Shown here: positions 10,926 to 12,209 of the stretch, piece after piece
How positions within the stretch are numbered: position 1 is the stretch's first letter
Layout of the letters: every line of letters starts with the position of its first letter
Virus record (IMG/VR): IMGVR_UViG_3300042535_000037
Location: 100,031-164,030 of that record
Strand: one strand, 5' to 3'
Source: a virus
Lineage: Duplodnaviria > Heunggongvirae > Uroviricota > Caudoviricetes
DNA: 64,000 bases
Made by a program: the position numbers and the translations under genes
Notes under the pieces: generated by a model
Told to the model about the DNA's origin: nothing
Database searches by the model: none
The model's input: only the letters and a program-made list of their open reading frames with translations

Positions 10926-12209
10926 ATGCTTCTCTCAGAAATTCTTATGCGTACCCAAGGTTACATCGTAGGTGGAGCAATCCGCAATCGTATCCTTAAT
11001 CTCCCCATCTCCGATTACGACATAGTAACACCCTTCACTCCTGAAGAGCTCAAGAACATGCTTCCCATAGCTTATGAACTCGGAGAGAGATTTGGTACAG
11101 TAATAGTCAACACAGACGTAGGCTTGGTAGAAATCACAACTATGCGTAAAGATATTTCTTCAGGTCGTCATCCTAAAGTAGAATTTACAACATCTCTTCT
11201 AGAAGACCTTTCTCGTAGAGACTTCACCATGAACTCTATCGCTGAAGATGTCCTAGGCAAACGCTACGACCCCTACAATGGAATATCAGACATCCAGAAC
11301 CGTCTAATTCGTTGCGTTGGTAATCCAGTAACCCGTATCTCTGAAGACAAGCTACGCGCCCTTCGAGCAATCCGTTTTTCATCTCAACTAAACTTCCGTA
11401 TAGACTCCCATCTTTCCAGAGTCCTATCTTACACGGACCTCGACATTGGAAATGCTGAAATAATAATAGATGAAGATGGGTACAAGCTTGCACAGGGTCT
11501 CTCCATAGAACGTGTAATGGATGAATTTCAAAAGATGCTTCTTTACAATCCAGTAAAATCTCTTGAATCCCTCAGCTTTTACAATCTCCTTCCTCAGTTC
11601 CTACCAGAAGTCCACTCATACAAAAACTTCCCTCACAACCCTCTCCACCACAAGGGCAACCTCTGGCAACACGTAATGGAAATGCTTTCCCTTGCTCCCA
11701 AGGAATTCACCCTACAACTTTGCATCATTTTCCATGATGTAGGAAAAATAGAAACTCAGAATGGTACAACCTACTACAATCATGACCAAGTAGGAGCCTC
11801 AATGATACCATCAATCGCATCGCGCCTCAAGCTTTCCACCTTCAACAAAGAAGCAATTCAATTTGTCTGTGCTAACCACATGAAGCTTCACAATATCCAG
11901 CAGATGCGCTCTGGTAAACGCCAATCCCTATATAATTCTCCTTACTGGTACTATCTCTATGAAACCCACAAACTAGACGAACTTCGTGACACATCTACCA
12001 TCGACTTTATAGAATCCGACCTTTCCCAAATCCAAAAGGTCAAACCTCTAGTCAATGGTCACGATGTTATGGCTCTGGGAGTCACAGGGAAGCCCATAGC
12101 AACCATTTTGGAGACCATGCTTAATCTTCAACTTGACGGTAACATAACTTCAAGGGAGCAAGCCCTCGCGCTACTTTCAGACATAATAGGTGAAATGAAT
12201 GACAACTGA
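10926..12209 (+). CDS. cca: class II (bacterial-type) tRNA nucleotidyltransferase / CCA-adding enzyme with HD domain
   Basis: YIVGGAIRN..DYDIVT (motif A), TMRKD..GRHPKVEF loop, DLSRRDFTMN, EDKLRALRAIRF, and IFHDVGK (HD). Confidence 0.92.
   Translation: MLLSEILMRTQGYIVGGAIRNRILNLPISDYDIVTPFTPEELKNMLPIAYELGERFGTVIVNTDVGLVEITTMRKDISSGRHPKVEFTTSLLEDLSRRDFTMNSIAEDVLGKRYDPYNGISDIQNRLIRCVGNPVTRISEDKLRALRAIRFSSQLNFRIDSHLSRVLSYTDLDIGNAEIIIDEDGYKLAQGLSIERVMDEFQKMLLYNPVKSLESLSFYNLLPQFLPEVHSYKNFPHNPLHHKGNLWQHVMEMLSLAPKEFTLQLCIIFHDVGKIETQNGTTYYNHDQVGASMIPSIASRLKLSTFNKEAIQFVCANHMKLHNIQQMRSGKRQSLYNSPYWYYLYETHKLDELRDTSTIDFIESDLSQIQKVKPLVNGHDVMALGVTGKPIATILETMLNLQLDGNITSREQALALLSDIIGEMNDN

Follow-up and report, generated by a model that had tools for sequence, protein, structure and literature searches.

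Why does a virus that appears to infect an archaeon carry a gene for a tRNA nucleotidyltransferase of the bacterial type? The question is raised by the gene at 10926-12209 of a 64,000-nucleotide stretch of viral DNA (the window), which comprises bases 100031-164030 of the 183,084-bp IMG/VR virus record IMGVR_UViG_3300042535_000037; coordinates below are those of the window unless they are marked as genome coordinates. Archaeal cells use class I CCA-adding enzymes, and class II enzymes are bacterial (and eukaryotic). The initial annotation had described the product of this gene as a class II enzyme, complete in its motifs, its flexible loop and its HD domain, and Pfam profiles, alignments and a fold model agree with that description. 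Taken together, sequence and predicted structure confirm the protein (P0001) as a class II tRNA nucleotidyltransferase with a head domain, motifs A to E, the flexible loop, the head-neck-body-tail fold and an HD domain. We consider it probable that P0001 is a working nucleotidyltransferase-HD enzyme of a Methanosarcinaceae virus, building or restoring the 3'-CCA of tRNAs. The gene and its two main domains are arranged as follows.

10926-12209, + strand: class II tRNA nucleotidyltransferase of the CCA-adding type, 427 residues, with an HD domain at the C-terminus (P0001)
10962-11312, + strand: Pol-beta-like head domain, residues 13-129, containing motifs A, B and C and the flexible loop; motif D lies just beyond it
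11646-12005, + strand: HD phosphohydrolase domain, residues 241-360, with the H...HD...H...H ligands kept

The gene is a single unbroken frame of 427 codons on the + strand, running from ATG to TGA. Its product matched three Pfam families in succession, the PolyA_pol head PF01743 (3.6e-25, residues 13-129), the RNA-binding helix bundle PolyA_pol_RNAbd PF12627 (5.7e-06, residues 192-231) and HD PF01966 (3.7e-05, 24.4 bits against a cut-off of 22, residues 258-360). In PHROGs it matched the tRNA nucleotidyltransferases of phrog_2244 (2.5e-59), and among the NCBIfam models those for CCA-adding enzymes ranked at the top (NF009814, 182.5 bits), above the pcnB model TIGR01942 (106.4 bits).

All of the class II motifs could be located in the sequence. 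Motif A reads GGAIRN...D30-Y-D32 (residues 16-32), and motifs B and C read DLSRRDFTMN (residues 94-103, with RRD at 97-99) and DPYNGISD (residues 115-122). Motif D, which holds the EDxxR templating residues, is EDKLRALRAIRF (residues 140-151), and motif E is SIERVMDEFQK (residues 193-203). Between motifs A and B lies the flexible loop TTMRKDISSGRHPKVEF (residues 71-87), in which the basic/acidic pair is kept; it aligns with the loops of the Geobacillus stearothermophilus and Planococcus enzymes and is two residues shorter. The flexible loop is needed for A-addition, and CC-adding enzymes lack it. Retention of the loop in P0001 therefore argues against a CC-adding enzyme. In the C-terminal half the HD residues are H242/H249...H270-D271-x-G273-K274...H286...H318; H242, H249, H270, D271, H286 and H318 are invariant or nearly so across 24 relatives, and D351 is nearly so.

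An AlphaFold2 model of P0001, built on the 24 relatives, reached a mean predicted local distance difference test (pLDDT) score of 91.5 and a predicted template modelling score of 0.85. When the Protein Data Bank was searched with this model, the top 46 matches all belonged to the class II family (CCA-, CC- or A-adding enzymes, or poly(A) polymerase of bacteria), and the G. stearothermophilus enzyme 1MIV ranked first (template modelling score 0.73/0.78). The C-terminal half of the model gave weak fold matches to the HD proteins PhnZ and YhaM. A 17-residue insertion in the neck (about residues 173-190) was modelled at a pLDDT of 66-78. At the level of sequence, the solved structures 6IBP and 1MIV matched at about 5e-30 and E. 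coli poly(A) polymerase at 1e-17.

Two other identities were tested and fit poorly. Poly(A) polymerase I (PAP I, or PcnB), whose family the initial annotation had itself named as an alternative, is disfavoured because a regular-expression search for the PAP I signature [LIV][LIV]G[RK][RK]Fx[LIV]h[HQL][LIV] found none in P0001, and because the pcnB models score below the CCA models (TIGR01942 reached 106.4 bits of the 305.65 required and NF008634 66.1 of 702). A class I, archaeal-type CCA-adding enzyme, a nucleotidyltransferase with no relationship to class II beyond the catalytic core, was rejected since family, sequence and fold matches are all to class II.

That the element is archaeal had also been claimed in the initial annotation, and this stood up on three counts: promoter architecture, a Methanosarcinaceae-type disaggregatase gene, and the absence of the class II head from four archaeal control genomes. 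The premise behind the claim held as well: PF01743 was present in all 10 bacterial control genomes and in none of the 4 archaeal ones, Methanosarcina acetivorans included. The record carries a 127-bp direct terminal repeat at its ends, so the genome is closed. Among sequencing runs, the full sequence was located in a single sediment metagenome, which may be its source, and in no RNA run. Upstream (5') of open reading frames (ORFs) the motif CCTTTTTATACATAAAAC is about 8-fold enriched, and in more than 40 genes its TTTATA begins at -27 to -30 from the ATG, an arrangement that implies leaderless transcription from a TATA box about 26 nt ahead of the start codon. Genome-wide there is a second promoter class, in which TTTATA at -37 to -41 is followed by a GGTGA Shine-Dalgarno sequence. 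Scored by a uniform metric, 56 of 243 ORFs had a TATA motif starting at -32 to -25 relative to the ATG, and 8 had one at a control offset; the share was 0-12% in phage contigs with a similar G+C content and 3 of 7 in the archaeal control, Acidianus tailed spindle virus (ATSV). This promoter cassette is spread along the whole 183 kb, the operon of the CCA gene included.

Two genes elsewhere in the record bear on the host.

Genome 48832-52854, + strand: beta-helix and disaggregatase-related protein, 1340 residues, with disaggregatase repeats
Genome 10597-10953, + strand: PTH2-type peptidyl-tRNA hydrolase (9e-31)

The Disaggr_repeat family matches only M. acetivorans among 14 control genomes, and the strong named relatives of the disaggregatase-related protein (42-50% identity) all come from Methanomethylovorans, Methanosarcina or Methanolobus, the best being from Methanomethylovorans (45% identity, E value 2e-197). 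The protein may be a virion or lysis enzyme that acts on a Methanosarcina-type cell envelope, and its gene is the best host marker that we found. PTH2 is the archaeal and eukaryotic type of peptidyl-tRNA hydrolase. Judged from the genome sequence, three independent lines, namely the promoters, the disaggregatase gene and PTH2, indicate that the host of the virus is an archaeon of the Methanosarcinaceae. A six-frame search for the MC1 family (PF05854) gave no match at E <= 1e-3, at which a distant relationship is still possible, and none of the ten ORFs at the genome start was recognised by PHROGs as a virion protein.

The CCA gene lies in a compact transcription unit, whose parts are listed here.

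10667-10680, + strand: archaeal-type TATA box ACTTTTTTATACAT of the operon; its TTTATA begins 39 nt before the TTG at 10711
10700-10704, + strand: GGTGA Shine-Dalgarno sequence of the first gene, 6 nt before the TTG, spaced as in other genes with a GGTGA leader
10711-10923, + strand: ORF of 70 residues with a TTG start, with which the operon opens; it ends 2 nt short of the ATG of the CCA gene
10917-10920, + strand: GGAG ribosome-binding site in the last codons of the preceding ORF, 5 nt ahead of the ATG of the CCA gene (translational coupling)
12199-12375, + strand: ORF of 58 residues with four cysteines (C-x3-C ... C ... C); its ATG lies inside the CCA gene, which it overlaps by 11 nt, and its 3' end runs into the start of the next ORF
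12356-15008, + strand: five head-to-tail ORFs of 159-195 residues right after the 58-residue ORF, with no Pfam match and no detectable similarity to one another

The TATA box ACTTTTTTATACAT is the cassette that is seen genome-wide at -37 to -41 before genes with a GGTGA leader, and no TATA-like motif was found in the 55 nt preceding 10926. As read from this layout, the CCA gene is the second gene of a tightly packed operon under the virus's own archaeal promoter, with a predicted operon start at about 10698. Among the ten ORFs around the gene, Pfam returned only noise below threshold. With a G+C content of 43%, the gene is no outlier in a genome that averages 37% (z = 1.6), and the class II head (PF01743) occurs in a single copy in the genome. 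Because of the operon structure, and because the gene is also present in the distantly related 202-kb contig L012 described below, the sequence data indicate that the CCA gene is resident in the virus and is no assembly chimera.

The closest relative of P0001 is P0002, encoded at 10001-11323 of contig L012, with 40-45% identity. L012 is a 202.5-kb contig from another metagenome, and it has nine proteins in common with this virus within 21 kb, the CCA enzyme (40%) among them. P0002 has a 17-residue insertion (about residues 85-101) inside the flexible loop that controls A-addition, and N in place of D in motif A. In a set of prokaryote contigs with one genome per species, the 80 best matches to P0001 were all bacterial (Acidobacteriota, Bacillota, Patescibacteria, Spirochaetota and others) at no more than 37% identity. 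Against phage records a blastn search with the CCA gene gave no match; tblastn against deposited phage and archaeal-virus genomes found a homologue in 436 records.

Trees were built with FastTree on 219 rows and with IQ-TREE under the posterior mean site frequency model on 75 rows. P0001 and P0002 form a pair with 99% support, nested in a 99%-supported clade of 20 proteins that all come from uncultured contigs, the best identity to P0001 being 40-45%. Several of these contigs are 40-105 kb long; L012 looks viral, and five further contigs that we opened look like tailed viruses. The phylogeny that the initial annotation had proposed as a check thus places P0001 in a clade of uncultured, mostly virus-like contigs, and the 80 best cellular matches are bacterial throughout. 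The enzymes of archaeal viruses fall into three lineages on separate long branches. An approximately unbiased test did not reject a single clade of the four archaeal-virus enzymes (p = 0.233), and we therefore claim neither independent capture nor a common origin. A YopX-family gene stands right next to the CCA gene in two contigs of the clade that are not otherwise related, on its 3' side in L012 (11323-11754) and on its 5' side in L181 (9600-9998); no YopX match adjoining the CCA gene was found in this window.

What could such an enzyme do for the virus? Two further genes of the record are relevant.

Genome 45172-45246, + strand: tRNA-Asn (GUU), the only canonical tRNA of the virus, with discriminator G and one G-U pair in the acceptor stem
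Genome 70719-72890, - strand, outside the window: kinase-phosphatase-RNA ligase fusion of 723 residues (AAA_33, residues 4-142; calcineurin-like phosphoesterase, 174-318; T4 Rnl1-type ligase, 453-661)

The tRNA-Asn gene ends in ...GGATTCG followed by TAA and encodes no CCA, so the CCA must be added after transcription. Two TATA cassettes stand directly after this gene. In the window ARAGORN found no tRNA, and in window 3000-12500 Rfam found none at E values up to 1. From its domains, the fusion protein is predicted to be an RNA end-healing and sealing enzyme, and it shows 39% identity over its full length to proteins of SPbeta-like Bacillus phages, Twort and Brochothrix A9. In L012 the ligase fusion lies 9 kb 5' of the CCA gene and PTH2 7 kb 3' of it, with all three within 20 kb, and PTH2 lies within 3-8 kb of the CCA genes in both L012 and L014. 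For Hen1 (PF12623) the virus gave no match, but neither did any control genome, so that its absence is not shown.

Gene context leads us to infer that the enzyme helps to maintain or repair tRNAs in the course of infection. By analogy with the family, the carboxylates of the head-domain DxD would catalyse nucleotidyl transfer, the EDxxR of motif D would select first CTP and next ATP with no nucleic acid as template, and the flexible loop, being retained, would permit addition of the final A. In this way 3'-CCA could be built or restored on the viral tRNA-Asn and on host tRNAs with shortened ends. The HD domain of E. coli Cca is a 2',3'-cyclic phosphodiesterase and a phosphatase in vitro; to our knowledge, these activities are known for E. 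coli Cca only. The HD domain of P0001 might likewise first clear 2',3'-cyclic or 3' phosphates. The gene itself would belong to a pool of tRNA-upkeep genes common to this virus and bacteriophages, and not to the class I system of the host.

Several observations weigh against the reading as a working CCA-adding enzyme. No NCBIfam equivalog cut-off is reached (NF009814, 182.5 against 290; NF008137, 116.8 against 451), which makes P0001 a divergent family member. N21 occupies the position of the D in GGxVRD, which is nearly invariant; this is the sole departure from the class II consensus, and only P0001 and its closest relative P0002 have it. The HD score is barely above the Pfam cut-off, and the usual HPEGD stretch reads H-KGN. 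CCA-adding and A-adding enzymes are not separable by sequence alone, and a class I enzyme is presumably present in the host anyway, so that the benefit to the virus is not evident. Class II families interconvert through few changes. P0001 might accordingly be an enzyme that adds A or CC, a poly(A) or decay-tailing polymerase, or an inactive remnant, and the N in motif A, the equivalog scores below threshold and the neck insertion at lower pLDDT would fit such a protein. We nonetheless regard this as improbable, since the flexible loop retains its basic/acidic pair, the PAP I signature is absent and the pcnB models rank below the CCA models, and this is the single such gene in the genome. Moreover, the catalytic and templating residues are all kept between P0001 and P0002 at only 40-45% identity, which argues against decay of the enzyme. 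A bacterial host or a chimeric contig, either of which would make a class II enzyme unremarkable, is already largely refuted and seems to us very improbable indeed. Although the enzyme and the ligase fusion have close relatives in bacteria or phages only, and no virion protein was recognised by PHROGs in the set of ten ORFs, the archaeal promoter cassette covers all 183 kb with the CCA operon, the Methanosarcinaceae-specific disaggregatase and PTH2 are present, the terminal repeats close the genome and gene content is common with L012.

The remaining alternatives concern the reason for which the enzyme is kept. The initial annotation had suggested the maturation of odd tRNA-like RNAs of the virus, and P0001 could in principle be a dedicated maturase for RNAs that the host class I enzyme refuses. 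This is also quite unlikely, because ARAGORN and Rfam (E values up to 1) find no tRNA in 3000-12500, the tRNA-like RNAs lie outside the CCA operon, and such enzymes also occur in ATSV, in the halovirus HGTV-1 and in many phages whose tRNAs are normal, so that no special substrate is needed to explain the gene. A counter-defence repair kit has more in its favour and is possible, though we would not expect it. According to this explanation the CCA enzyme, the kinase-phosphatase-RNA ligase and PTH2 restore tRNAs that have been cut by nucleases of the host (for example anticodon nucleases, accessory RNases of type III CRISPR systems, or toxins of the HEPN or PIN kind), the HD domain clearing cyclic phosphates and the head rebuilding the CCA; it overlaps with the reading that we prefer, a working enzyme for tRNA 3' ends, and differs only in the selective reason. 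The T4 proteins Pnk and Rnl1 repair tRNA-Lys cut by PrrC. This virus does encode the fusion of AAA_33 kinase, Metallophos phosphatase and Rnl1-type ligase as well as PTH2, the ligase fusion, the CCA gene and PTH2 lie within 20 kb of one another in L012, and ATSV has a polynucleotide kinase (gp80) 1.5 kb from its class II gp83. However, distances of 40-60 kb separate the three genes in this virus, and they belong to different operons.

These data do not overturn the class I/class II rule for cells. They add a methanogen (Methanosarcinaceae) virus to the archaeal viruses that carry a CCA-adding enzyme of the bacterial and phage class, and the presence of the CCA gene together with phage-type RNA end-healing and sealing genes in one virus supports a viral transfer of tRNA-upkeep genes across the bacterial-archaeal divide. 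The more interesting question is whether a phage-derived tRNA repair set serves archaeal viruses as counter-defence. Large Methanosarcinaceae viruses might even carry a complete, host-independent tRNA rescue pathway of bacteriophage origin against archaeal tRNA-targeting nucleases, an extension that we consider doubtful; its parts may be the class II CCA/HD enzyme, the kinase-phosphatase-Rnl1 ligase fusion, PTH2 and the virus's own tRNA and tRNA-like genes. One reason to keep a class II enzyme might be precisely that it is spared by whatever inactivates or restricts the enzyme of the host in infected cells. P0001 is in any case a tractable enzyme for asking whether archaeal tRNAs are substrates of class II enzymes and whether archaeal viruses meet tRNA-targeting defences at all.

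Two observations on the window stand apart from the CCA gene. The GC skew of the + strand is strongly negative through all 64 kb, though most genes of the window lie on the + strand. The minority strand carries the following gene.

32851-33966, - strand: TnpB/Cas12f-like gene (OrfB_IS605 and TNB domains; phrog_506, 3.3e-52)

How does P0001 compare with known systems? Among solved structures, the CCA-adding enzymes of G. stearothermophilus (1MIV) and Planococcus halocryophilus (6IBP) align with it residue by residue in motifs A to D. Overall identity is about 22%, the sequence match is limited to residues 11-162 with no HD match to their C-terminal halves, and they have GGAVRD where P0001 has GGAIRN. 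E. coli Cca (NCBIfam NF008137) likewise combines the head with an HD domain, and its model aligns over residues 11-337; at 116.8 bits against a cut-off of 451, P0001 is no equivalog of it. Among the phage tRNA nucleotidyltransferases of phrog_2244, gp279 of Tunturiibacter phage Tunturi_5, for example, is 33.6% identical over 96%. These phages infect bacteria, whereas the gene described here has an archaeal promoter and belongs to a Methanosarcinaceae virus.

Other reports touch on elements of archaea. Borgs have been reported to encode a CCA-adding enzyme, its class not stated (bioRxiv 10.1101/2024.11.05.622173), and a genome map of a methanogen virus shows a tRNA nucleotidyltransferase, again without its class (PMC9796341). 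HGTV-1 is reported to encode a CCA-adding enzyme as well (PMC8651126). In our genome scan this archaeal tailed virus (NC_021328, region 116981-117367) gave a PF01743 head of 66.8 bits and an RNA-binding domain; no HD domain was detected in the enzyme, which is 28% identical to P0001 over 315 residues. HGTV-1 has a haloarchaeal host, and it carries 36 tRNA genes and other tRNA-metabolism genes, in contrast to the one canonical tRNA of the present virus.

The closest parallel in domain layout on an archaeal virus is gp83 of ATSV (YP_009230336.1, NC_029316), which is annotated as a tRNA nucleotidyltransferase and likewise consists of head, RNA-binding and HD domains. It is 29% identical to P0001 over 92% of the latter, and its gene neighbours the gp80 kinase at the 1.5 kb already mentioned. 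ATSV differs in its crenarchaeal host and its spindle-shaped virion, and gp83 sits on its own very long branch and is not sister to P0001; a literature search found no paper that discusses the ATSV enzyme. The rarity on an archaeal element that the initial annotation had implied does not hold, since ATSV gp83 and HGTV-1 already carry class II-type enzymes. New here is the Methanosarcinaceae as a host group, for which our literature search found no description of a class II enzyme. A class II enzyme on an archaeal virus is itself a recurring feature, already present in deposited genomes, at least two of them in GenBank.

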